This document shows positions 7,609 to 57,242 of a DNA stretch of 62,294 nucleotides, one piece after another. Source of the stretch: a virus (Duplodnaviria; Caudoviricetes); the IMG/VR virus record IMGVR_UViG_3300028608_000014, positions 1 to 62,294 of that record; one strand, written 5' to 3'. The notes under the pieces are model-generated. The model was not told the DNA's origin. It worked only from the letters and a program-made list of their open reading frames with translations, and searched no databases. Position numbers and translations under genes: made by a program. The stretch's first letter is position 1. The number at the start of each line of letters is the position of its first letter.

Positions 7609-7637
7609 TTGTAGATACCCTACGTGTGTAGTATGTT
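7609..7637 (+). promoter_or_regulatory. Promoter TTGTAG-N17-TATGTT with CTAC-GTGT-GTAG operator
   Basis: Shared operator; upstream of a CTACACACCAGGAGCA RBS. Confidence 0.6.
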
Positions 7638-7674
7638 GGACGCATACACCAGCACTACACACCAGGAGCACAGC

Positions 7675-21221: not shown

Positions 21222-21250
21222 TTGACACTACTTATGTAGGGCTGTAGATT
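21222..21250 (+). promoter_or_regulatory. Promoter TTGACA-N17-TAGATT with CTAC-TTAT-GTAG operator
   Basis: Consensus SigA elements plus the shared operator. Confidence 0.75.
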
Positions 21251-21299
21251 CCGTTTTACGAGCTACAGCCATACATTCACATCTACACAGGAGCGCACC

Positions 21300-21605
21300 A
21301 TGGGAAAACTGGCAGCAATCACACTCGCCGGAGCACTGCTACTGGCAGGGTGCTCGGCCCCCGAGCCTCCCATCGACAAGGATGCCGTCTATCTGAAGCT
21401 GGTCCACGAGAAGACCGGCAGCACGTCCAGCGACTCCGACCTGGTGGACATGGCCAAAGGTGCCTGCGGGCAGTTGAAGGACGGGCGCACCATGAAAGAC
21501 CTGCAAAACGATGTCGCCGCCACCGGGTTGACCCAGACCTCGAAGCTTGAACTGGCCCGGATCGTCGGGTTCGGCGTCGGTGTCTACTGCCCGGAGTTCC
21601 TGTGA
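21300..21605 (+). CDS. lipoprotein, DUF732-like
   Basis: Lipobox LAGC; D..YL...ACGQL...YCPEF. Confidence 0.8.
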   Translation: MGKLAAITLAGALLLAGCSAPEPPIDKDAVYLKLVHEKTGSTSSDSDLVDMAKGACGQLKDGRTMKDLQNDVAATGLTQTSKLELARIVGFGVGVYCPEFL

Positions 21606-42161: not shown

Positions 42162-42568
42162 AGGATCACCTCGCCCCCGCCGTACTCAAAGAGATCCCAC
42201 TGGGACACCGGGTCCTGGAAGTCCACGATCTCCACGGCAGACTCGGCGTCCAGTTCCTCGGCTTCCTGCCGGGCGCGGGCGCGCAGCGCGGCGGCGTGCA
42301 GCCGGATCGCGTTGGCCACGGACGCGCCGTCGGTCTGGACCGACTCGGAGCGCAGTTTCTTGGAGACGTAGGCCTCGTTGGTGGCCAGGACATCCAGCGC
42401 GTCGGCAGCCGCGTATTTGACGTTCGCGGCATTGATCGTCAAATAGCCGCCGATAAAACCGTCCGAGAAAATGTATTCCCCGCCGTGGTCCTGAATGGTA
42501 TCCCCGATGAGAAGGCGCACCTGCCCGACGGGTGAATTGGGGTCTGCGGGAAAAACGTCTTCGGCCAT
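42152..42568 (-). CDS. head-to-tail adaptor
   Basis: GQVRLLIGD...FSD..I...AAADAL pattern. Confidence 0.8.
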   Translation of the reverse strand: MAEDVFPADPNSPVGQVRLLIGDTIQDHGGEYIFSDGFIGGYLTINAANVKYAAADALDVLATNEAYVSKKLRSESVQTDGASVANAIRLHAAALRARARQEAEELDAESAVEIVDFQDPVSQWDLFEYGGGEVILWR

Positions 42569-42574
42569 AAAGCA

Positions 42575-42594
42575 ATTCTACCAATTGGCAATTT
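42575..42594 (-). promoter_or_regulatory. Late-type promoter AAAT-N7-TGG-TAGAAT (leaderless start)
   Basis: -10 lies 6 nt upstream of the ATG. Confidence 0.65.
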
Positions 42595-42597
42595 CAC

Positions 42598-42669
42598 AAA
42601 AACGGAGGCGGCCGACGGGGAGCAACCGTCGAACCGCCTCCGCTGCGCTACACACAACCACAGGAGCAA
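42598..42669 (-). ncRNA. Candidate anti-RBS small RNA A
   Basis: Extended -10 TGA-TAGAAT at 42674-42682; tail and loop complementary to CTACACA..AGGAGCA RBSs; terminator hairpin with U5. Confidence 0.5.
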
Positions 42670-42692
42670 GATAATTCTATCAGCCCCGGAAT

Positions 42693-42911
42693 TTAGTCAA
42701 CAAAGCCGATGTGCACCGTTTCAGTGCGGGCGTAGAGTTCGCCGTCCTTGCCCATTTCGACCACCTTGTTGGTGCCGTTGAAGATGAAATTCTCCAGTTC
42801 CACGCCGTCATAGGTGACGGTCATGGACCGCGCCCGGTTGGGGTCAATTCCAAGCTGCCGGAATGAATCCATTAGCGCCGTGCGGGAAATCAATTCAGGG
42901 GTTTTTGTCAT
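42693..42911 (-). CDS. hypothetical protein (MTKTPEL...)
   Basis: 72 aa, after the capsid terminator. Confidence 0.65.
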   Translation of the reverse strand: MTKTPELISRTALMDSFRQLGIDPNRARSMTVTYDGVELENFIFNGTNKVVEMGKDGELYARTETVHIGFVD

Positions 42912-48580: not shown

Positions 48581-50074
48581 TCAATACATCGAAATAGACA
48601 TTTCCTGCTCGGCCAGAAATTGCTCCATGCCGATCTCGAAGGTTTCCCCGATTTTCAGTTTCGACACCGGATCTTTCGGGTCCACCGGCAGGTCCGCGCA
48701 GGCGTACATGGCCGCGTCGGCAAAGTCGGGGGACTTCACGCCGCGCCGGATCATGTCATCCTTGGACTCGATCTGGACGGCCCCGCGCGGGCTGAATTTG
48801 TACTGGATGCCCTCCAGCTCCTCCTTCAGGGACTTGTCGCCGTACTCCATGTCGATGTGGCCGGTGGCCATCTTCTCGCGCAGGGTGTCGTAGGCGTAGG
48901 CGCGGTAGTTGGCCCACTTGTCCAGGTCCGGGGACGCCGCATTGCCCACCAGGCCGATGGTCTCCCAGCGCGAAATGGCCAGCCGGGTCACCTGGTCATA
49001 GACGCCCGCGCCGATGCCCACGCCGTCGATCCGGACCTCATCGACGCCCAGCTTGATGGCCCATTCCACGATCCGCTCGGCCGTCTCCACGGTGTCCTTC
49101 TTGCCCCACTTATCCACCAGGCGGAGCACACCGTCGTGCCAGCTGTAGAGCACCGTGTAGTCCGCGCCGAAGCGGGCGATGTCGCAGCCGAGCTTGGGCT
49201 TGGATTCCGGGTCAGGCCGCAGCGTGGTGTTGATGGCGTTGGCCAGGGTCTTCTGGCTGAACAGCGTGTTGATGCCCTGGCCGGGGAACTCGCCCAGCAC
49301 CTTGGACATGTAACGGGCCGAGTCCTCGCCCCACTCGCGCTTCTTCTCCTCCACCCATTCGGGGGAGATCAGGCCGTCCTTGGCGTCCTCGGGCAGGTAC
49401 TCCCCGGTGAAGTTGGGGGTATCGAAGGCCGAGATGGTGATCTTGGACCAGCCGTTGTCGTCGTCCGCGAAGATCTTGCCCAGCTCGGAGGCGGGATCAT
49501 CGGGGTTGGCGATGGCCAGGATGCGGTCATTTTTACCCGTGGTGATGGTGGCAACGCCGGTCCACAGCGATTCCGCGATGCCGCAGGCCTCATCGAGCAC
49601 CGCGAGGACACCCTGCCGGCGGTGGATGCCCTGGAAGCCGTGCTGATTGGTGTCCGAGGGCTTGCGGCCGAAGCCCACGATACGGCCGCCGACGTCCTTC
49701 CACTCATCGTCCATGGTGATCTTGCCGGGCAGGTCGTACTTGGCCGACAGGGTGCGCAGGTACTCCCAGAGGATCTTGTTGACCTGCTCATAGGTGGGCG
49801 CGGTGGAGACCACGATGGCGTCCAGCTCGATCCGGGTGTCCACCCACCAGGCGATGACCACCGAGGCGGTGAAGGACTTGCCCGAGGCGTGGCAGGACTT
49901 GACCGCCGTTTTCTTGTTGGCGATCAGTGAGTTGGCGATCTCGATCTGCTTGGACCACAGGTGGATGCCGAGCCGCTCCCGCGCCCAGAGCGCGATGTCA
50001 TGCCGGTAGCAGTCCAGTTTCTGGCGGTGCGCGAGCCCGAGGGCCGCGCCCTGCATGGCCGCATGGATGCTCAT
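48581..50074 (-). CDS. terL: terminase large subunit
   Basis: SCHASGKS Walker A, LDEA Walker B, GCDIARFG and SPDFADA nuclease motifs. Confidence 0.95.
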   Translation of the reverse strand: MSIHAAMQGAALGLAHRQKLDCYRHDIALWARERLGIHLWSKQIEIANSLIANKKTAVKSCHASGKSFTASVVIAWWVDTRIELDAIVVSTAPTYEQVNKILWEYLRTLSAKYDLPGKITMDDEWKDVGGRIVGFGRKPSDTNQHGFQGIHRRQGVLAVLDEACGIAESLWTGVATITTGKNDRILAIANPDDPASELGKIFADDDNGWSKITISAFDTPNFTGEYLPEDAKDGLISPEWVEEKKREWGEDSARYMSKVLGEFPGQGINTLFSQKTLANAINTTLRPDPESKPKLGCDIARFGADYTVLYSWHDGVLRLVDKWGKKDTVETAERIVEWAIKLGVDEVRIDGVGIGAGVYDQVTRLAISRWETIGLVGNAASPDLDKWANYRAYAYDTLREKMATGHIDMEYGDKSLKEELEGIQYKFSPRGAVQIESKDDMIRRGVKSPDFADAAMYACADLPVDPKDPVSKLKIGETFEIGMEQFLAEQEMSISMY

Positions 50075-50304
50075 TCGCTCTCCCTCACCACCTTCAGGTG
50101 GTACTGCAGAGTCTCGAACGCGGCGGTGTCCTCATACACGTCCCACATCAGGTGCAGCAGGTCCAGCGTCAGGCCGTAGGAGTTGCCCATTGCAGCGAAC
50201 AGCCGGGTCTTGATGGCGGCCCAGTCCGGCTCCGCGCCGTCGCGTGCGTAGAACAGGTCCAGGATCTCGCAGGCGTCGGGGGTGAAATGCTCGGCCGCGC
50301 TCAT
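50071..50304 (-). CDS. hypothetical protein between the terminase subunits
   Basis: ATGA overlaps on both sides. Confidence 0.75.
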   Translation of the reverse strand: MSAAEHFTPDACEILDLFYARDGAEPDWAAIKTRLFAAMGNSYGLTLDLLHLMWDVYEDTAAFETLQYHLKVVRESE

Positions 50305-50852
50305 GCTCCCTGCTCCTCGGGGTGCGCCGAGAGGGCCTTCTGCGCCTCGGCAAGGAAGGTGGTGTCGAAGTTGTCCAGTACCTCGCCCCGGATGGCCTTC
50401 AGGGTCTTGCCCTTGTCAAAGGCGATCTCCAGCTGCTGCTTGAAGTTGCCCTGCAGCGTCATCATGGCGTTCAGAATGATCTGTGTCTGGGCCTTGGTCA
50501 GTTCCACCAGGGCGTCCTGGGCCTCGGTCTTACGGGCCTTGTTCAGCGCCTGCAGGGCCTCGATCCGGTCGAAAATCTTCAGGAACAGTTCCAGATCCTC
50601 GGCCGTGGCGGCGGAATTGGCCCGCTGGTGTGCCATCACGAGGAGCTTTTCGAGCCGGATCAGGTGCAATACCCACTGTTCCTCGGGGCTCATCACCGCG
50701 CGGGACTCGATGTATTCTTTCCACGCCCGCACAGCCTCATCGACGGAAATGTCCTGCTCGGTCGCAATTTCCTCGAAGGTATAACCCTCGCTGCGGCGGT
50801 CCACCACAATCGTGGTGAGCATATCCACGGTGTTTTCGATGTTTTCCGCCAT
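50301..50852 (-). CDS. terminase small subunit (HTH)
   Basis: RRSEGYTFEEIA HTH; upstream of terL; leaderless -10 TAAGCT. Confidence 0.7.
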   Translation of the reverse strand: MAENIENTVDMLTTIVVDRRSEGYTFEEIATEQDISVDEAVRAWKEYIESRAVMSPEEQWVLHLIRLEKLLVMAHQRANSAATAEDLELFLKIFDRIEALQALNKARKTEAQDALVELTKAQTQIILNAMMTLQGNFKQQLEIAFDKGKTLKAIRGEVLDNFDTTFLAEAQKALSAHPEEQGA

Positions 50853-50914
50853 GGAACCAGCTTATTACAAATGCACATCTGCAATTCATAAATACAGAGG
50901 CATCAATTACAAAG

Positions 50915-50948
50915 CAAAAGGCTCCGGCCCTTATGAGGGCCGGAGCCT
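50915..50948 (-). terminator. Intrinsic terminator
   Basis: AGGCTCCGGCCC/GGGCCGGAGCCT followed by TTTG. Confidence 0.75.
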
Positions 50949-50985
50949 GCGCCCGGATGGCATGGGGGTTACCGGACGCAGGGGC

Positions 50986-51060
50986 TCAGATGCGCCGGAC
51001 CAGCAGAACAATCAGCACGATGATGGCAACAACGACGAGTATGTACATCAGGTTGTCCAT
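50986..51060 (-). CDS. 24-aa hydrophobic peptide MDNLMYILVVVAIIVLIVLLVRRI
   Basis: -10 TAAACT 6 nt upstream (leaderless); own terminator; not in the supplied ORF track. Confidence 0.6.
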   Translation of the reverse strand: MDNLMYILVVVAIIVLIVLLVRRI

Positions 51061-51139
51061 GGATTCAGTTTACAGGACTCGATACAGAACCCCGCCGCGC
51101 CGATAAGCACCCTTATGACAAGCTGGCGGCCCGGAAAGC

Positions 51140-51760
51140 GCCGCTGACCTGCAGCAACACGCCCGTTAAAGCAGCAAAGCCCGGACCTTGGCGGAGTCCG
51201 GGCTACTGTGTTGCTTACCAATAAAAATTGAATAACTAGAGTCTATCGTAAGGTCTTGGCGGACAACACGATAGGTCCAGGGCGGCGTGTCGGAAAAACG
51301 CCGGGCAGTCCCTGCGGGAACCACGGGCAACCGTGGCGGACGTGTCCCAGCGGCTAACCCACCGCGTGTAGCGAGAGGCCCAATTGAAGGCCAGAGGGGT
51401 TTCCTAGAGCAGTCCCCTGCGCGTAAAGGCAGACCAGGAGCGACGAGGGCGCAGCGGTGCGCCTTGCCGGGGAGGCGGTGTGCCCCGGAGGCGACTGCTC
51501 ATACCCCGGTCCTGCGCTCCGAGTAATCCCCGAAGCGACGGCGAAAAATTTTTTCGTCGGCCCCCTGCAGGGGGGCTACTCTGTCGTGAATACCTCACCT
51601 CCACGACAGGGGCTCCCGCCCCAGGCCCTGGCGGGCCTCCCCCGGCAGCCGCACCGCGCAAGCGCGGCCCGGCACGTAGGTCTTGTCCCACCTAACGCTG
51701 GACTACTAAGGGTGGAGACTTTCAAAAGGTGACCCACCTTAAGTGACGCGCGCGCGAAAA
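51140..51760 (+). other. Putative Rep-independent (RNA-controlled) prophage replication origin
   Basis: Non-coding, adjacent to parAB; two TTGGCG-loop hairpins; T-tract plus G-tract. Confidence 0.4.
51172..51235 (-). ncRNA. Candidate Inc/Cop-like antisense RNA (CGCCAA loop)
   Basis: -10 TAGACT at 51240-51245; AU-rich tail; 9-bp stem with CCGCCAAG loop followed by UUU. Confidence 0.45.
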
Positions 51761-51767
51761 ACCGTGC

Positions 51768-51956
51768 TCATTCTTCCGAATCGAGCACGAAGAACAGCCC
51801 ATCAGCAACCGCTTCCTCGACCCAGAATCTGGTCCTGGGTGTTGTCCGTTGCCGGGCGATTTCCTCCAGCCGGGCCCTGTCATTGCCGACGGAGTACACC
51901 ATCCGTCCGGTGCCGTCCGTCCGCTCCGCCATCAGCAGGTACCTGTACTCAGCCAT
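51768..51956 (-). CDS. hypothetical protein, last gene of the par operon
   Basis: GGAGGG RBS; overlaps the partner gene. Confidence 0.7.
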   Translation of the reverse strand: MAEYRYLLMAERTDGTGRMVYSVGNDRARLEEIARQRTTPRTRFWVEEAVADGLFFVLDSEE

Positions 51957-52239
51957 CTGTCCCTCCGAGCAAATGGCCGTATTTTTCCTCCAGCAGCGGC
52001 CACAGCTCGCGCTCCACGAACTTCTGCTGGCTGATCTCCTGCAGGTCCGCCGCGGCCTTCAGCAGCTCCAGCTGGGACTTGCTCAGCCGCAGGTTGAAGC
52101 CGTGGGACTTCGGCTCGCGGTTCCGCTGCTTCCACTTGGGCTCATCGGCCTTGGTGGGCCGCTCCGGCTTCTCGGCCGCGTCCCCGAAGGCCTCGATCTC
52201 CTTCTCCATCTCGGGGGTCGGCTCCCTCATCTTCACCAT
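51949..52239 (-). CDS. ribbon-helix-helix centromere-binding protein (type Ib ParB/ParG-like)
   Basis: Disordered N-terminus; FNLRLS...LLKAAA...SQQKFV RHH pattern; coupled to parA. Confidence 0.75.
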   Translation of the reverse strand: MVKMREPTPEMEKEIEAFGDAAEKPERPTKADEPKWKQRNREPKSHGFNLRLSKSQLELLKAAADLQEISQQKFVERELWPLLEEKYGHLLGGTDG

Positions 52240-52868
52240 GACAGGGCCTCCTGCAGCAGCAGCTGGATCTCGGCTTTGGCCTTGCGATCCCGCGTTTCCA
52301 CCGCTCCCTTGCCATCACCCATCGCCTTGCGGAAGACCTTGCGGTCGTGCAGGACCGTCCTGGCCAGCACCAGATCCGGGTATTTCGTCATGTAGGTGCG
52401 GGCCTCGCCCTCCTCATCGTCCCAAACGTGCGGAGATACCCGATTCAGCACGCCCATGAGCTTCAGGTCCGGGTTGAACTTCCGTGCCTCCTTGACGGTG
52501 GCCAGCAGCGACTTCGAGGTGTCCAGATCCGGCTGGGAGGGCAGCAGCGGTGCCAGCAGCAGATCGCAGGCCGTCATCGCGGTGCGCAGTTCCTTGGAGT
52601 CCTTCCCGGCGGCGTCCACCAGCACGACGTCGTGGGCCTTGTCGAGGTTTATCAGTTTGGTGTAGAGGTTGCCGCTTACCTGTTCGGTCTTGATGGGCGC
52701 TCCGCCGGCCTCCACGCGGTCGGCGGCCCAGATGCTGGTCGTGTGCACGGTCGGGTCCGCCTCCACGATGCAGACTTTTCGGCCCCGGCGCTGCAGCTCG
52801 GCGGCGAGGTTGACGGTGATGGTGCTCTTGCCGACGCCGCCCTTGTGGTGGCCGATGAGGATCAGCAC
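52233..52868 (-). CDS. parA: ParA family partition ATPase (short, type Ib)
   Basis: KGGVGKST deviant Walker A, VEADP, VLVDAAG, P..PSQPDL. Confidence 0.93.
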   Translation of the reverse strand: MLILIGHHKGGVGKSTITVNLAAELQRRGRKVCIVEADPTVHTTSIWAADRVEAGGAPIKTEQVSGNLYTKLINLDKAHDVVLVDAAGKDSKELRTAMTACDLLLAPLLPSQPDLDTSKSLLATVKEARKFNPDLKLMGVLNRVSPHVWDDEEGEARTYMTKYPDLVLARTVLHDRKVFRKAMGDGKGAVETRDRKAKAEIQLLLQEALSW

Positions 52869-52870
52869 GG

Positions 52871-53083
52871 CTACTCCCCCGCTTCCGTCGCGGCGCGGTG
52901 CTGCGTCAGGGCATCGAACATGGCGATGAAGTCTGAGGCCCTGGACATGGCCACGGGCCTGGACGGGCCGTAGTCGTCCCAGTGCTCAATGACAAATTCG
53001 AGGTCAACGGCGTCATCGCTGGCGACCAGGGCCTGCGCGACGGCGGTGCGCTCATCGCGGGCATGGTTCGGTTGTGCTCCCAT
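52871..53083 (-). CDS. hypothetical protein, first gene of the par operon
   Basis: CTACACAACCACTAGGGGAGCA RBS. Confidence 0.65.
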   Translation of the reverse strand: MGAQPNHARDERTAVAQALVASDDAVDLEFVIEHWDDYGPSRPVAMSRASDFIAMFDALTQHRAATEAGE

Positions 53084-53110
53084 TTTGCTCCCCTAGTGGT
53101 TGTGTAGTGC

Positions 53111-53340
53111 TTTGGTAGCTGTGCAGTAGCTCTATGGTACCCCTTTGGTAGCTAAAGGGTACCCATAGCGTAGTTATTTCATACCAGAACGGTAGTTGTT
53201 GCATAGCACTACCAAACTAAAACGGTAGCTCTTTGGTATTGATCTGGTAGCACGATGGTAGTTATGTGGTAGTACTCTGGTACCACTTTGATAGTTCTAC
53301 GGTAGCGATTATGGTAGTTCTACGGTAGCGGTAGGGTAGC
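53111..53340. repeat. parS-like centromere: about 20 GGTAG-core repeats at 11-bp period
   Basis: Cores (some degenerate) at 53114, 53125, 53136 ... 53301, then 53313 and 53324; AT-rich; upstream of parA. Confidence 0.8.
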
Positions 53341-53366
53341 TGCCCGTCCGCCGGGCCGCAGGGCAC

Positions 53367-53434
53367 AAAAAAAAAAATCCCCTCCCAGGAGCACCAGGAG
53401 GGGATTTTCGCTGCAACAGCTCTACACAGGAGCC
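53367..53434 (-). ncRNA. Candidate anti-RBS small RNA B / terminator
   Basis: 12-bp stem with UGGUGCUCCUG loop, U11 tail, 5' GCUCCUGUGUAG. Confidence 0.5.
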
Positions 53435-53442
53435 ACTCTAGC

Positions 53443-53664
53443 CTATTCCGGCTCCAGATACCGCCCGCCGACGCTCATTTCCTCGCCGTAGGAGGGGACG
53501 GGCGTGTCCAGGCGTACCAGATACATCTCACGAGGCCCCGGAGGCACCAGCACCACAGTTGCGCAGCTGCCTGCCGCAATAGTGAATACAGGGTCCGGGA
53601 GATCCGGCCAGTCCAGGCAGTACCGGACGCGCTCACCGGGGCCGAACCGCTTCTGATCCGTCAT
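53443..53664 (-). CDS. hypothetical protein (SH3-like pattern)
   Basis: AAGGAGCA RBS; FGPGERVR...YLVRLD. Confidence 0.7.
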   Translation of the reverse strand: MTDQKRFGPGERVRYCLDWPDLPDPVFTIAAGSCATVVLVPPGPREMYLVRLDTPVPSYGEEMSVGGRYLEPE

Positions 53665-53866
53665 TGCGCTGCTCCTTGTCGTTTGAGGGGCGGTAGGGGT
53701 TGGAAAAAGCGGCCTTGGCGTCCGCGCCGTAGGTGTGCTCGCGCTCGATGGCGGCCTCGCCGCCTTCATCCCACGCCTCGGCCATGAGTTTCCGGATCAC
53801 CGGCACGATGAGGCCCTGGCGGTCCTCCAGACCCTCGCAAATGCGATCTTTCAGGCTTTTCGCCAC
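53633..53866 (-). CDS. hypothetical protein (AWDEG...NPY motif)
   Basis: GTG after GGAGG. Confidence 0.65.
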   Translation of the reverse strand: MAKSLKDRICEGLEDRQGLIVPVIRKLMAEAWDEGGEAAIEREHTYGADAKAAFSNPYRPSNDKEQRNDGSEAVRPR

Positions 53867-54084
53867 GGCATTTCCTCCCTCAATGTGCCCTCCGCGATGT
53901 CCCACATGAGTTCCCAGCCCGAATCGGTCCACCTGTAGGCCTTCACAGGGGTGGAAAGCGCCTCATCCCGGAGCCGGAACAGCACCGCCTTCTTGGTCTG
54001 TCCGAGATTCGCATGGGCCTTCTGGCGGGGCACACGGTCGGGAACGATGGTCAGATAGGGCATGATTTCCGGCTTTTCGGTCAC
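53851..54084 (-). CDS. hypothetical protein
   Basis: 77 aa, operon packing. Confidence 0.7.
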   Translation of the reverse strand: MTEKPEIMPYLTIVPDRVPRQKAHANLGQTKKAVLFRLRDEALSTPVKAYRWTDSGWELMWDIAEGTLREEMPWRKA

Positions 54085-54218
54085 AGGAACAGCCTTTCTA
54101 TCCGCTGATCGGCCCTTTTCCAGGCCCGGGAGCCTCTTTCGAGCCGTTCCCGGGCGTCCAGCGCCCGGATGGCCCGGTAGTGCCAGATGGTGCCTTGAAT
54201 GCGTCTCCAGAGCCTCAT
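54081..54218 (-). CDS. small basic protein
   Basis: GAGGAGG RBS; overlaps neighbours. Confidence 0.6.
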   Translation of the reverse strand: MRLWRRIQGTIWHYRAIRALDARERLERGSRAWKRADQRIERLFL

Positions 54219-54682
54219 GCGGCCTCCTCTTTCCGGTGATTGGAGTGGATCGCCCTGTCGTTGCCCCACCACAGCACCGGGGCCTCCAGGTACACGATGC
54301 GCGGGAGCTTCATCACGGTGATCCTCTCGTTGCTCATCGTGATGTGCGGGATGAAGCCGTGGTCGTCGGAGGGCGGGATGCCGAGGTTGGTCAGGTGCTC
54401 CGCCATGACGTCGCGGGTGTAGCGCAGGTGCGGGCTGAACATGCTGTAGAGCCGCAGCACCGGGACGTCCTTGTTCGCCCCGAACCAATCGATGGAGGCC
54501 TGCAGGCTGACGGGGCCGGGGGCGATGTCGCGGAAGGCGGCCACGACGTCCTGGACATCGCCGCGCCCGTAATCCGCGTCCGTCGTTTTGCCCAGGAACA
54601 GGGCGGTGACGTGCAGCTCGGGGTCCGTGGAGCCCTCGAACCAGGCCGGCCAGACGACGCAGATGCTCTTGTGCTCGCTCAT
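54215..54682 (-). CDS. 2H phosphoesterase (LigT / 2'-5' RNA ligase / Acb1-like)
   Basis: Two HxT motifs: LHVTALFL and FIPHITM. Confidence 0.85.
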   Translation of the reverse strand: MSEHKSICVVWPAWFEGSTDPELHVTALFLGKTTDADYGRGDVQDVVAAFRDIAPGPVSLQASIDWFGANKDVPVLRLYSMFSPHLRYTRDVMAEHLTNLGIPPSDDHGFIPHITMSNERITVMKLPRIVYLEAPVLWWGNDRAIHSNHRKEEAA

Positions 54683-54855
54683 GCCGCTGCCCCGTTCCGC
54701 AGGTAGCTCTCGAAGTCCCTGGCCACATCCAGCGTCCATTCCCGGCTGGCCTTGCCCTGTCCCAGCTGGACGGCGGCGTTCAGGGCGGTGGCCCGGATCT
54801 CCAGATCCGTCCGTATGGCCGAGGGGACGGTGATCTCACCGTCTACGCGGTTCAC
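54679..54855 (-). CDS. small hypothetical protein (58 aa)
   Basis: GTGA and ATGA overlaps fill the gap exactly; not in the supplied ORF track. Confidence 0.6.
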   Translation of the reverse strand: MNRVDGEITVPSAIRTDLEIRATALNAAVQLGQGKASREWTLDVARDFESYLRNGAAA

Positions 54856-55097
54856 TGCAGGCCCAGCCGTTCATTGACCTGCTTCAGCATCGACTCCGCC
54901 CTTTCAGGCAGGAGGCCATAGGTCACCTCACCGTGTGTGACGTCTCCCGAGGTGTAGAGGGCGATCAGGCTGGCGGTGCGCTGCTCGTAGGCGAGGGCGA
55001 GCGTGGCCTGCGCCTGGGCGTAGGAGGCGGCGTCGATTTCCTGGTAGGTGGCCTCATCGAAGTGCGGATTGCCGGGCAGGGATTGCTGCTGGTTCAT
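54852..55097 (-). CDS. hypothetical protein
   Basis: CTACACACTTCAAGGAGCAC RBS. Confidence 0.75.
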   Translation of the reverse strand: MNQQQSLPGNPHFDEATYQEIDAASYAQAQATLALAYEQRTASLIALYTSGDVTHGEVTYGLLPERAESMLKQVNERLGLQ

Positions 55098-55170
55098 TGG
55101 GTGCTCCTTGAAGTGTGTAGGTCTGTAAGAACAGACTACACATCCATCGATTACAAGGCCACCCTTGGGG

Positions 55171-55518
55171 TCACGGTTTTTCGGTGCCCAGGCCCTCCCG
55201 GATCAGCGTCTGCTGGACGGGCTCCGCCGAGCCCAGCGGGGACACGGTGCCCAGGTACCGGGTGAAGGAGCGGCCGTTCTGGATGGCGAGGGGCACCGGG
55301 GACTTGCGGGTGTCGCAGAAGACCATGCTGTCCGGCGGGCACAGCTGCTCGGCGCGGGCTTTGGCCTCCGGCCCGCCCGGGTCATCGATTTCGGGGCAGT
55401 ACAGCGCGATGAGCCGGATGTGCTGGATGCACCAGTCATCGAAGCCCTTGTCGATGAACAGGACCACCGTGTCCCCGTCAATCCAGCGGATCACCCGGGC
55501 CTTGTAGTCGTACACCAT
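55171..55518 (-). CDS. thermonuclease (staphylococcal nuclease family)
   Basis: IDGDTV...IRL..LYCPE...RYLG. Confidence 0.85.
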   Translation of the reverse strand: MVYDYKARVIRWIDGDTVVLFIDKGFDDWCIQHIRLIALYCPEIDDPGGPEAKARAEQLCPPDSMVFCDTRKSPVPLAIQNGRSFTRYLGTVSPLGSAEPVQQTLIREGLGTEKP

Positions 55519-55551
55519 GCCCCCTGTACATAAAGTCTGCTGAACAACAGA

Positions 55552-55995
55552 CTACAGGGGGCGGCGGATCTGCCACGGCTTCTTCACCCGGTGCCGCCTG
55601 CGCACTGGGGCCAGGCCCAGCACCTCCCGGCGCTGGTAGACGCTGCCCAGGGAACGCCCCAGGGCCATCGCAATGGCCTCATAGCCCACGACGTCCACGT
55701 TGTCGCGCAGGAATCTGTCGTCCTCGGCAGTCCACCGCATGCGGGTGTTGGTCTGCAGGTTCATCGGCGGCCTCGGGGCCGGCACACCGATGCCGCGCTC
55801 CTCCCGGTCCCGCTTCTTCCTGGCGTTGTGGCACTTGTGGCAGTGCTTGCGGCGGGCTCCGTTGCCGGAGATGACGGGGAAGGAGGGGCCGTCGGCCAGT
55901 TCGCCGCAGGAGCCGCAGGTGCGGGCCACCAGGGTCCGCCCGGCGGGCGAGAACGGGCTGTTCGGACCCTTGCTGGGCAGCGGCTTAGCCGTCAT
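55552..55995 (-). CDS. zinc-finger plus Myb/SANT-like DNA-binding protein
   Basis: CGSC...CHKC; RWTAEDDRFL...IAMALGRSLGSV. Confidence 0.8.
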   Translation of the reverse strand: MTAKPLPSKGPNSPFSPAGRTLVARTCGSCGELADGPSFPVISGNGARRKHCHKCHNARKKRDREERGIGVPAPRPPMNLQTNTRMRWTAEDDRFLRDNVDVVGYEAIAMALGRSLGSVYQRREVLGLAPVRRRHRVKKPWQIRRPL

Positions 55996-56104
55996 GGCTG
56001 CAGCCGCAGGCAACAACGAGGTCAGCTGCCCGGTCCAGGGCGTAGCCGACGCAGCTGGCGTGCCTGCCGGCCCGGCATTCCGGGCACAGCGGCCGGGCAG
56101 TCAC
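55985..56104 (-). CDS. small Cys-rich peptide (CPEC..GRH..C)
   Basis: GTGA overlap; Zn-binding pattern. Confidence 0.6.
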   Translation of the reverse strand: MTARPLCPECRAGRHASCVGYALDRAADLVVACGCSHDG

Positions 56105-56226
56105 GAGCGCGCCTTGTGGTGCCAGCGCCCGTCTTCCTCGCTGTAGTGAACCCACTGCCTGCAGTACCCGCACTGGTAGCGGTGGAACTCCTGGATGTAC
56201 TGCGGGCTGACGGGGTGCTCCCTCAT
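56101..56226 (-). CDS. small Cys/His peptide (CGYC...WHH)
   Basis: GGAGG RBS; overlaps neighbours. Confidence 0.55.
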   Translation of the reverse strand: MREHPVSPQYIQEFHRYQCGYCRQWVHYSEEDGRWHHKARS

Positions 56227-56375
56227 CCCCCGGCCTCCTTTTCCGCCTCATCCAGCACCTTCCCGATGATGCGCACGCCCATCGGCGTGATGTCATCCGG
56301 GCTGATGAGCCGCAGCGCGGCCCGCAGCCGGGCGATGAGCGCCGTCATTCCGCTGTCATCCGGTGGCTGTGGCAT
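56223..56375 (-). CDS. small hypothetical protein
   Basis: TGATG overlap. Confidence 0.55.
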   Translation of the reverse strand: MPQPPDDSGMTALIARLRAALRLISPDDITPMGVRIIGKVLDEAEKEAGG

Positions 56376-56701
56376 CACAGGACGTGGAAGGCCCGCAGCA
56401 GCGTCCACGCGCAGACCACCATGTTCAGGGCGAACGCGGCCATCGAGCCCCGGAACAGCCTGCGGCTGATGCGCCGGTATCGCAGGACTTCCTCATCCGA
56501 GTACCAGGGGTGGTCTTTGAGCTGTGGCAGGCCCCCGTCCACCTGCGAGACGTTGAGCAGCCCGCCCCGGATGCCGGGGGCCTGGACCATGCACTTGTCC
56601 GTGTGGCCGGGTTTGAGCAGGCACGGGCCGAGGGCGTCGAAGGGCGGGTCCAGCAGCTTCCCGCAGGTCTTGATGCCGTACTGCGGCAGGTCCGTGCTCA
56701 T
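56375..56701 (-). CDS. membrane protein with a C-terminal TM segment
   Basis: GGGGGAG RBS; hydrophobic C-terminus. Confidence 0.7.
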   Translation of the reverse strand: MSTDLPQYGIKTCGKLLDPPFDALGPCLLKPGHTDKCMVQAPGIRGGLLNVSQVDGGLPQLKDHPWYSDEEVLRYRRISRRLFRGSMAAFALNMVVCAWTLLRAFHVL

Positions 56702-56808
56702 GCTCTCCCCCGGGGTAAGTGTGTGGTGATGTCCGGGGCTGCGCCGTAGTCGGCTGGGGGGACAACAGCAGCGCAGCCCCGGACACCGGAAATAACCCTA
56801 GCAGGAAA

Positions 56809-56852
56809 CTTGAGCCAATCCTGAGCCAATCCTGATGACGTCCTGAGCCTGC
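56809..56852. repeat. Four 11-bp tandem repeats, CYTGAGCCAAT-like
   Basis: CTTGAGCCAAT CCTGAGCCAAT CCTGATGACGT CCTGAGCCTGC in a divergent intergenic region. Confidence 0.7.
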
Positions 56853-56903
56853 CGTGTTACCGAAGGGTGCCCTTGACCTGCGGTTACACCATAAGCTGGG
56901 GGC

Positions 56904-57242
56904 ATGGACTTGTTTTTTGACCGGCAGGGGACGCCGATCAGCCTGGAGCGCTGGGCTGCCCTCATGGGGCGGCAGGACCGCCATGTCGGGCTCACCGATC
57001 TGGGCGCGCTCGGGAGGGTCTCCACCGTGTGGCTGGGCCTGAACCACGCCTGGGGCGACGGTCCCCCGCTGATCTTCGAGACCATGATCTTCGGCGGCCC
57101 GATGGACCAGTACCAGGAGCGCTACAGCACCGAGGAGCAGGCCGCCATCGGGCACGGGTTCGCCGTGCAGGCCCTCATGTACTACCGGCCGGAGGCCAAA
57201 CGGCCGCCACTGATCCAAAACGGAAGGAAACCCCGAAAATGA
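56904..57242 (+). CDS. hypothetical protein (VSTVWLGLNH...PLIFETMIF motif)
   Basis: Leaderless -10 TAAGCT; 112 aa. Confidence 0.8.
   Translation: MDLFFDRQGTPISLERWAALMGRQDRHVGLTDLGALGRVSTVWLGLNHAWGDGPPLIFETMIFGGPMDQYQERYSTEEQAAIGHGFAVQALMYYRPEAKRPPLIQNGRKPRK

Follow-up and report, generated by a model that had tools for sequence, protein, structure and literature searches.

An intrinsic terminator beside the partition site of a predicted plasmid-prophage resembles a conserved phage small RNA with anti-leader motifs

Introduction

Does the hairpin beside the putative partition site of the phage genome studied here merely end transcription, or does it also belong to a small RNA directed against the leaders of the phage's own mRNAs? 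The initial annotation of this locus, here called element B, had taken it for one half of a two-member small RNA (sRNA) family whose other half, element A, lies elsewhere in the same genome. To our knowledge, a function has been assigned to only a few of the regulatory RNAs of actinobacteriophages. Small RNAs with anti-Shine-Dalgarno (anti-SD) motifs in C/U-rich loops are found in bacteria, namely 6C/B11 in Actinobacteria, RsaE/RoxS in Firmicutes and the CcsR1 'CCUCCUCCC' RNAs in alpha-proteobacteria. Short antisense RNAs also act in phage immunity: the loops of c4 of P1/P7 and of sar of P22 pair with the ribosome-binding region of phage genes.

Results

Element B at the edge of a predicted partition module

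At 62,294 bp, the window, that is the whole stretch of DNA analyzed, spans a complete virus record of IMG/VR. Its affiliation is with actinophages: the large terminase and the major capsid protein share 46-49% identity with their counterparts in Amigovirus, a genus of Arthrobacter phages. Genes are directed rightward from 6.0 to 22.3 kb and leftward from 22.4 to 56.7 kb. Besides a partition module and a block of small genes, the leftward part contains the genes for lysis, tail, capsid, portal and terminase. Element B sits in this leftward-transcribed part, between the following two features:

53443..53664, minus strand: gene for a 73-aa protein directly upstream of element B, function unassigned, ribosome-binding site AAGGAGCAGC
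53103..53345, no strand assigned: partition-site-like array with at least ten registered copies of a 33-nt unit

The 73-aa gene has a coding-like composition (GC1/2/3 = 0.70/0.49/0.76), and profile scans assigned it to no Pfam or PHROG family; across 20 neighboring or cassette-bearing proteins such scans yielded few informative matches. Element B occupies what would be the 3′ untranslated region (UTR) of this gene. The 33-nt unit of the array consists of GGTAGC/GGTACC-type repeats with 11-bp phasing. Past the array follow a 70-aa gene, parA (52233..52868; 211 aa), the product of which is 45% identical to a ParA-like protein of phage D6, and a 96-aa gene. By its layout, the combination of repeats and parA is a predicted plasmid-prophage partition module with the centromere upstream.

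Terminator anatomy

Two features make up the 3′ part of element B:

53373..53409, minus strand: intrinsic terminator hairpin, 16 bp with three wobble or closing pairs counted in
53367..53377, minus strand: U11 tract of the terminator, an A11 run on the plus strand

The orphan motif, the A11 run, the stem, the loop and the hexamers TAGGCT and TAGAGT named in the initial annotation are all present in the sequence, and its reading of the minus strand is correct. Its 12-bp hairpin with an 11-nt loop needs adjustment. The corresponding sequence exists, with stem arms AAAATCCCCTCC and GGAGGGGATTTT and the plus-strand loop CAGGAGCACCA at 53386-53396, but RNAfold and the terminator scan lengthen the stem to 16 bp (7 G-C) by U-G, G-U and G-C pairs, and RNAfold leaves an apical loop of 5 nt, UGCUC (53393..53389). 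The shorter stem is the same structure with its weak pairs open and a more generous count of the loop. In the 11-nt reading the minus-strand loop is UGGUGCUCCUG (53396..53386); it contains UGCUCC, the exact complement of GGAGCA, a ribosome-binding variant of this phage.

The stem lies 30 nt past the TAG stop codon of the 73-aa gene on the same strand and the partition repeats begin 22 nt beyond the terminator, a position which, combined with the 16-bp hairpin and the U11 tract, describes a textbook intrinsic terminator. Element B is thus almost certainly, as judged from these features, a strong intrinsic terminator, at which the leftward gene block of about 56.7-53.4 kb comes to its end. The earlier reading underweighted this ordinary role. 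As in other Rho-independent terminators, a gene is followed on its own strand by a G+C-rich stem-loop and, directly behind it, a U tract; here these would also act as an insulator before a centromere and promoter region and shield the partition-site repeats and the promoter of the par operon from read-through. Element B differs from such terminators in that its apex and 5′ flank are complementary to the phage's own leaders and agree with another locus of the genome, a conserved sRNA gene.

A 67-nt RNA that starts at 53433 folds with -28.6 kcal/mol (z = -3.67), none of 200 shuffled sequences folding equally well, into a small 5′ hairpin with the loop CUGUGUA and the terminator. None of the 24 sequencing runs listed for the sequence is an RNA run.

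Could element B then be a terminator and insulator and nothing else? According to this explanation recombination at the border of the par module left behind an inverted leader cassette, now decaying, as the 5′ tail, and the likeness of the loop to that of element A is coincidental or a by-product of a GGAGG/CCUCC-type stem. The hairpin and the U11 tract are fully accounted for by terminator anatomy. The apex, on the other hand, is not what terminators usually display: UGCUCC within 14 nt of the apex occurred in none of 69 strong control terminators from about 560 kb of unrelated phage DNA, and even GCUCC was found in just two of the 69. When the strongest terminators of the window and those of G001, a related phage, are considered together, such a loop is confined to element B and the A-type elements. 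We consider it less likely than not that termination is the full account, though this reading deserves serious attention, and return to it below.

The strand opposite to the terminator can also be considered. A short plus-strand RNA could start from TTGATA-16-TATGGT (53288-53315), end at the U4 of the hairpin and display SD-like GGAGCA/GGAGG or a site for a CsrA-like protein, the latter having been put forward initially as the alternative to an sRNA. One sigma-70-like match does lie upstream, and the hairpin folds on this strand too (-24.5 kcal/mol, tail TTTTCGCTGC). However, a promoter match of this kind is expected by chance (1 vs 1.0 expected), just four U's follow the stem, and neither SD-like motif is followed by a start codon. 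The proposal of a CsrA-like protein finds no support in the sequence: the phage has no match to the CsrA family (PF02599), and the GGA motifs are on the strand opposite to the terminator. Moreover, all members of the A family carry their -10 box and U tract on the strand equivalent to minus. A functional plus strand is accordingly a very improbable explanation. Small plus-strand open reading frames behind the SD-like motifs were discarded as candidates, there being no ATG, GTG or TTG at these places.

The 5′ flank and the leader cassette

Upstream of the hairpin, the minus strand carries three further elements:

53421..53433, minus strand: 5′ anti-leader seed GCUCCUGUGUAGA, complement of the leader cassette CTACACA plus GGAGC
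53410..53420, minus strand: GCUGUUGCAGC block, complementary to GCUGUAACAGC in the leader of the gene starting at ATG 8668, with one G-U pair
53445..53440 (TAGGCT) and 53440..53435 (TAGAGT), minus strand: putative -10 boxes, overlapping the upstream stop codon

Read from the TAG stop codon, the order on the minus strand is therefore TAGGCT/TAGAGT, GCUCCUGUGUAG, GCUGUUGCAGC, hairpin and U11. The two boxes lack a TG extension, which most A members possess, as well as a clear -35 element. From TAGGCT to GCUCC the distance is 6 nt, equal to the spacing behind TAGAAT in element A.

The leader matches reported initially hold. The plus-strand 13-mer TCTACACAGGAGC at 53421-53433 recurs exactly at a single place in the window, 21282-21294, where it ends 5 nt before ATG 21300; the seed of element B is complementary to this leader in 13 of 13 positions. 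The motif CAGGAGCAC occurs five times, always on the plus strand, against 0.74 occurrences expected and with none of 100 shuffles reaching five, and three of the copies lie in the leaders of ATGs 6056, 7675 and 8668. By itself, ACAGGAGC is not enriched (5 vs 2.64 expected; 12 of 100 shuffles reach 5). The window contains 315 repeated 13-mers, compared to 60-97 in ten Markov shuffles, so that an exact 13-mer repeat alone means little, and the abundance of such repeats speaks for element B as a plain terminator. What stands above chance is, at the level of sequence, the combination of UGCUCC at the apex with GCUCCUGUG 6 nt past TAGnnT in both A and B.

The heptamer CTACACA is found 13 times in the window. 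Nine copies precede an SD site and a start codon in gene orientation, 0 to about 22 nt before an AGGAGC-type SD sequence, six of them on the plus and three on the minus strand; the resulting leader cassette, CTACACA...AGGAGCA, thus stands before at least nine genes. Two further copies belong to inverted pairs, and only two, at 42648 (A) and 53422 (B), are orphans. Neither orphan is followed by a start codon, and each lies immediately upstream of a terminator on the minus strand, an arrangement which argues against a fortuitous remnant next to a plain terminator. The orphan motif of element B is, by its letters, an inverted copy of the leader cassette. CTACACA was rejected as a -10 element, its distances both to a promoter-like site at 21222-21250 and to the start codons being inconsistent.

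These phages favor an unusual ribosome-binding variant, GGAGCA being the most common one. Among 73 provisional starts in the window GGAGC is used 19 times and the canonical GGAGG four times, and CA comes directly after GGAG in 18 of the 51 ribosome-binding sites of the window and 12 of the 42 of G001. Leaders are CA-rich, while the linkers of the sRNA are UG-rich in all ten A members; the orthologs of the 8668 gene in G001 and G003 likewise have CA-rich leaders that end in GGAGC.

When the 28-nt 5′ segment of element B was compared with 31,128 genome windows, the best non-self site was the 8668 leader (-38.2 kcal/mol), with which seed and GCUGUUGCAGC block form a predicted two-block duplex involving GCUGUAACAGC and CUACACA..GGAGC. 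That the GCUGUUGCAGC block lengthens this pairing, the sole difference being a G-U pair, is a further point against a plain terminator. The 21300 leader ranks sixth with the 28-nt segment and second among trans sites with a 16-nt seed. For the seed of element A, the leaders of the first gene of the par operon (ATG 53083) and of a Sak4-like gene (ATG 14052) are among the best five trans sites. For the sRNA of G001, the leader of its own 8668 ortholog is among the nine best sites, and three of the 13 best trans sites are translation-initiation regions. The energies predicted for elements A and B are matched by those of the best random coding sites; the ranking thus mirrors the shared cassette and is not independent statistical proof.

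The proximity of element B to the 73-aa gene bears the possibility of an action in cis, in which the anti-SD motifs of the 3′ UTR fold back onto the SD sequence of their own transcript (AAGGAGCAGC) and cause reduced translation or cleavage. The icaR mRNA of Staphylococcus aureus is a precedent for such a fold-back. Element B lies behind a gene whose ribosome-binding site has AGGAGCA, the 7-nt complement of the loop UGCUCCU, and it has no strong promoter of its own. A complementarity of 6-7 nt is equally given for 19 of the 73 starts, however, and the adjacent gene is therefore not singled out; the longer matches are with distant leaders, and in several relatives element A has no upstream gene at all. 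An action in cis is thus an improbable explanation.

It is also conceivable that CTACACA/TGTGTAG works on the level of DNA: a DNA-binding regulator of the phage could recognize it as a half-site, much like the stoperators known from Cluster A mycobacteriophages, and element B would simply contain a further copy. The inverted pairs of CTACACA, at 55114-55142 and 7625-7661, and the location of the motif at the first genes of transcription units would agree with this. The spacing to the SD sequence is variable, however, and the orientation tracks the gene, as is to be expected of an RNA element. Furthermore, the UG-rich complement is kept inside the A-family RNA in ten of ten aligned members, and the Pfam and PHROG scans brought up no candidate binding protein. 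We hold a DNA site to be quite improbable.

Element A, a conserved small RNA gene

The element with which B is compared comprises the following parts, as read from the sequence:

42592..42697, minus strand: element A, the sRNA gene that element B resembles
42679..42674, minus strand: -10 box TAGAAT
42669..42648, minus strand: 5′ seed
42642..42603, minus strand: terminator hairpin, loop UUGCUCC at 42625..42619
42602..42598, minus strand: U tract

TAGAAT is followed after 6 nt by GCUCCUGUGGUUGUGUGUAG, next by a hairpin of two tiers whose loop is UUGCUCC, and finally by U5. Element A resides between a small gene behind the capsid gene and the gene for a head-tail adaptor. The capsid protein has relatives at 16 IMG/VR loci, 15 of them with 66-76% identity and one, partial, with 94%, and a homolog of element A is present at the equivalent place in 11 of these. 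Of the five loci without it, L069 has another gene there and four end early. The alignment of the family (A1) consists of nine distinct sequences and that of the window; a further distinct member, L109 (69.9 bits), was found by a scan for the loop pattern, and the element is present in 11 distinct related phage sequences.

Throughout the ten aligned members the loop TGCTCC is invariant. In the model-fitted alignment 13 of the 15 stem pairs are changed on both sides with 90% of the cells paired, and none of 500 shuffles reached any of five measures of covariation; shifting the partners by 1-3 columns as a control lowered pairing to 37-63%. In several relatives the capsid terminator and a -10 box (TAGAAT, TATACT, TACTAT or TATCCT) are all that comes before element A. 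Since there is no preceding open reading frame in these cases, element A constitutes its own transcription unit. Taken together, the comparative evidence identifies element A as a real, conserved small RNA gene. A loop that drifts while the stem is kept had been named initially as the sign of a plain terminator; the invariant loop and covarying stem of element A are the opposite of this.

In all members a conserved GGTAGAAT-type box comes behind the element, separated by 7-9 nt from the adaptor ATG, which would fit a promoter for a leaderless adaptor mRNA. The Arthrobacter phages Amigo and Molivia have a longer non-coding stretch in the gap between capsid and adaptor genes, with a terminal hairpin (loop UUCCUCC) that is followed by the GGTAGAAT box as in the A members.

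A scan with the 14-mer of the loop retrieved 97 stretches. Among the 80 loci listed, seven were true A members, six of which were already known, and in the others the match was restricted to the loop. One of the loci retrieved, the low-GC contig L106, shares the inner stem-loop, which there lies at the apex of a terminator.

A blastn search with element A against GenBank phages gave no matches, and nowhere in the window did an Rfam family reach its gathering threshold. In the full-text literature searched, such an RNA is not described, nor is the element mentioned in the searched portion of the Arthrobacter phage paper. The conserved A-type family of phage sRNAs is thus newly documented here.

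Comparison of elements A and B

The initial claim that element B repeats the layout of element A, including two anti-GGAGC motifs, agrees with our findings. Both have in common TAGnnT, a spacing of 6 nt, GCTCCTGTG, TGTAG and GCAGCG, after which comes a terminator that displays UGCUCC at the apex and whose U tract is succeeded by GUG. Members of the A family have their -10 box 6-10 nt before a 5′ CUCC with a UG-rich stretch behind it; in element B the putative -10 box TAGGCT stands 6 nt before GCUCCUGUGUAG. Element B also has a terminator hairpin with UGCUCC in the apical loop; its seed is complementary to the translation-initiation regions of several mRNAs, as expected of a trans-acting anti-SD RNA. 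It lacks the inner 5-6 bp helix of the family (CGG...CCG with a 7-nt loop and an internal loop), which the covariance-model alignment treats as deleted, and has one continuous stem instead. Nor does it occupy the position of the A family between the major capsid gene and the gene for the leaderless head-tail adaptor, but lies between the 73-aa gene and the par repeats.

An unfiltered search of the whole window with the covariance model of the A family scored element A with 64.2 bits and element B with 15.7 bits (E = 0.077). Element B is the best non-self match and is aligned over its full length, -10 box and U tract included; a generic terminator comes next with 10.5 bits. Loci picked for the loop 14-mer alone also score 15-24 bits with this model. 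With default filters and 692 kb of sequence element B was not reported, the best unrelated match having 13.4 bits, and a sequence-only profile of element A (nhmmer) did not place it among its best 30 matches, which speaks for a plain terminator. Of the proposed family of two, one half is well founded, element A being conserved with a covarying stem, while the membership of element B is statistically weak.

No relative with the B locus was found in the collections searched. Each of five related records, one complete and four 55-78% complete, contains one strong copy, exclusively of A type, and that one sRNA suffices in relatives is in favor of element B as a terminator only. The same is true of the par region, which has no counterpart in the closest complete relative (no synteny with G001), so that the module is regarded as a mosaic insert. 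Megablast searches with 52800-53800 against GenBank phages and with 50000-57000 against PLSDB plasmids retrieved nothing. In the viral collection ParA matched a single locus with 44% identity over 32 residues, not a close relative, and the 73-aa and 174-aa neighbor proteins had no relatives there. A search with the large terminase TerL yielded one 5.8-kb fragment (95% amino acid identity) that ends short of element B, and among genome contigs it yielded nothing. Scans for the hairpin shape (23 loci) and for a leader 15-mer (42 loci) led to unrelated contigs only and were discarded.

In contigs from four soil runs, X3 is the only one to cover the hairpin, and X2 covers the region from 53427 onward. 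The strain represented by X3 has a 5-base deletion at 53367 that shortens U11 to U6; otherwise element B is unchanged, with no substitutions in either contig. As the flanks of X3 diverge by 0.9-2.4%, an unchanged element B is uninformative at such divergence.

Two independent features, tail and apex, nevertheless agree with element A at corresponding positions, against what a plain terminator would lead one to expect. The resemblance to the A sRNA is, by these sequence comparisons, unusual and non-random. Whether element B is a diverged second anti-leader sRNA of A type appears to us an evenly balanced question, and we treat it as a candidate.

Discussion

If element B gives rise to an sRNA, this would be either the last approximately 67 nt of the operon transcript or a transcript of about 65 nt from the weak TAGGCT box with a start near 53433. 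Such an RNA would expose the 5′ sequence GCUCCUGUGUAG, partly held in the small hairpin with the loop CUGUGUA, together with UGCUCC at the apex of the terminator. Its targets would be phage mRNAs with CTACACA...AGGAGCA leaders, the best predicted ones belonging to the first genes of the units at ATG 8668 and 21300, where pairing would mask the ribosome-binding site and lower translation. We infer in this sense that element B may exist as a discrete RNA that pairs in trans and represses by pairing.

Elements A and B share with 6C/B11, RsaE/RoxS and CcsR1 pyrimidine-rich anti-SD motifs in loops or single strands and a terminator at the end. In contrast to these RNAs, the motif is UGCUCC, directed at GGAGCA and not at GGAGG or GGGG, and the elements are encoded by a phage, among structural genes in the case of A and beside the par site in the case of B. 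The Rfam scores below threshold pointed to unrelated leaders or ctRNA for element B (best 26.7 bits with a cut-off of 55) and to CcsR1 for element A (12.3 bits with a cut-off of 65.3).

P1 is itself a plasmid prophage with a par system. Its c4 RNA acts within its own operon, and sar of P22 is a true cis-antisense RNA, whereas the complementary leaders found here are spread over at least nine genes on both strands.

In Cluster K mycobacteriophages a conserved asymmetric motif (SAS/ESAS) overlaps the SD sequence before many non-structural genes and, according to its description, occurs as one reverse copy at no gene start in four phages, its authors leaving open whether RNA or protein binds to it (PMC3203893). 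It differs in sequence, GGGATAGGAGCCC as compared to CTACACA...AGGAGCA, and the spacing is variable in our phage. In phage Anaya 16 forward copies and one reverse copy of SAS are present. The latter lies within a gap of 385 nt, where the transcribed strand is predicted to form a hairpin with this copy in its loop, and 135 Cluster K records show conservation of the region. Of nine Cluster K phages sampled, five retain the anti-SAS loop; each of the four without it carries 15-18 forward copies. A generalization to Cluster K is therefore at best partial.

Abundant small transcripts without an assigned function are described for Cluster A mycobacteriophages (PMC5712189). These non-coding RNAs differ in size (about 500 nt) and location, one place being behind Pleft at the right end of the genome and the other the 63-64 gap, and the text examined describes no anti-SD architecture for them (PMC5712189).

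On this background a wider idea can be put forward, tentatively and in the knowledge that it may well prove wrong. Elements A and B would be the trans-acting halves of a phage 'leader code', in which a regulon marked by the cassette is jointly shut off at the level of translation by anti-leader sRNAs. A would be ancestral and widely conserved and B lineage-specific and tied to the plasmid-prophage module, while the orphan reverse SAS of some Cluster K phages, unexplained since 2011, would be the same device. Should A and B indeed pair with the phage's own leaders, this would provide temperate plasmid-prophages with a concrete mechanism for coordinated translational shut-off, and it would account for the preference of the phage for the non-canonical GGAGCA. 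Should element B turn out to be a terminator only, the finding would be an ordinary one that still documents an insulator right against a partition site. The A-type part is bench-testable now, given that A-like elements are located in the same gap of the cultivable phages Amigo and Molivia. The proposed regulon contains replication and recombination genes, a gene for a DUF732 lipoprotein and the first gene of the par operon.

Element A and the promoter-like box behind it

Between the capsid region and the gene for the head-tail adaptor lies element A, a small RNA gene that stands alone and is conserved. It is preceded by a -10 box of its own, its two-tier terminator stem covaries at 13 of 15 pairs, and its loop, UGCUCC, is invariant. 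Homologues occur in related phages at loci L070, L071, L073-L078, L080, L082, L083 and L109. Rfam holds no family for it, and full-text literature searches turned up no paper on it.

42592-42697, minus strand: element A
42569-42590, minus strand: GGTAGAAT-type box, 7-9 nt upstream of the head-tail adaptor start codon (ATG)

The box stands where a Shine-Dalgarno site is absent before the adaptor ATG, and it is conserved at the corresponding place in 10 relatives as well as in the Arthrobacter phages Amigo (L096 2868-2886) and Molivia (L097 2838-2856). It resembles a promoter that, immediately downstream of the sRNA terminator, would drive a leaderless late mRNA.

An inner stem-loop identical to that of element A, UCGG-UUGCUCC-CCGA, also forms the apex of a terminator hairpin in L106 (9601-9643, plus strand), an unrelated low-GC viral contig; this could be either convergence or a distant member of the element A family.

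Leader cassette and its possible recognition

The loop UGCUCC is exactly complementary to GGAGCA, which, instead of canonical GGAGG, is the commonest Shine-Dalgarno variant both in the window (18/51 sites) and in the complete related phage G001 (12/42 sites). There is also a start-associated leader cassette, in which CTACACA precedes AGGAGC(A) and the start codon by 0-22 nt. Most copies belong to the gene that opens a transcription unit.

6022, 7655, 8646, 11287, 14020 and 21283, plus strand: CTACACA cassette copies
55120, 53107 and 23302, minus strand: CTACACA cassette copies
55114-55142 and 7625-7661: inverted pairs TGTGTAG...CTACACA
21300-21605, plus strand: gene for a DUF732 lipoprotein-like protein with lipobox signal, its leader complementary to element B at 13/13 positions

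The first inverted pair forms a near-perfect palindrome of 29 bp, flanked by two leftward genes, and might serve as an operator or fold into a hairpin in RNA. Of the window's sigma-70-like promoter matches, the best one (TTGACA-17-TAGATT, 21222-21250) lies upstream of gene 21300-21605.

In relatives, a terminator-like hairpin (G001 ~42230-42290 and L070 ~640-700, both minus strand) carries CUACACA in its apical loop, with a GAGGAGCA ribosome-binding site just downstream. This arrangement suggests that the UG-rich part of the sRNA may recognise CUACACA, loop to single strand.

The cassette is comparable to the start-associated sequence (SAS) motifs of Cluster K mycobacteriophages. In phage Anaya (L098/L099, 59840-59900), a non-coding gap of 385 nt contains a predicted hairpin on the transcribed strand, and its 10-nt loop carries the one reverse-oriented SAS. 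Cluster K phages conserve this hairpin, but only 5 of the 9 sampled retain the anti-SAS loop.

Surroundings of element B

53103-53345: partition-site-like array of GGTAGC/GGTACC-type repeats in two blocks with strict 11-bp phasing

A small-ParA operon follows downstream of this array in a type Ib-like layout. The U/A11 tract of element B (53367-53377) varies naturally in length: one contig from a different soil run carries 6 rather than 11.
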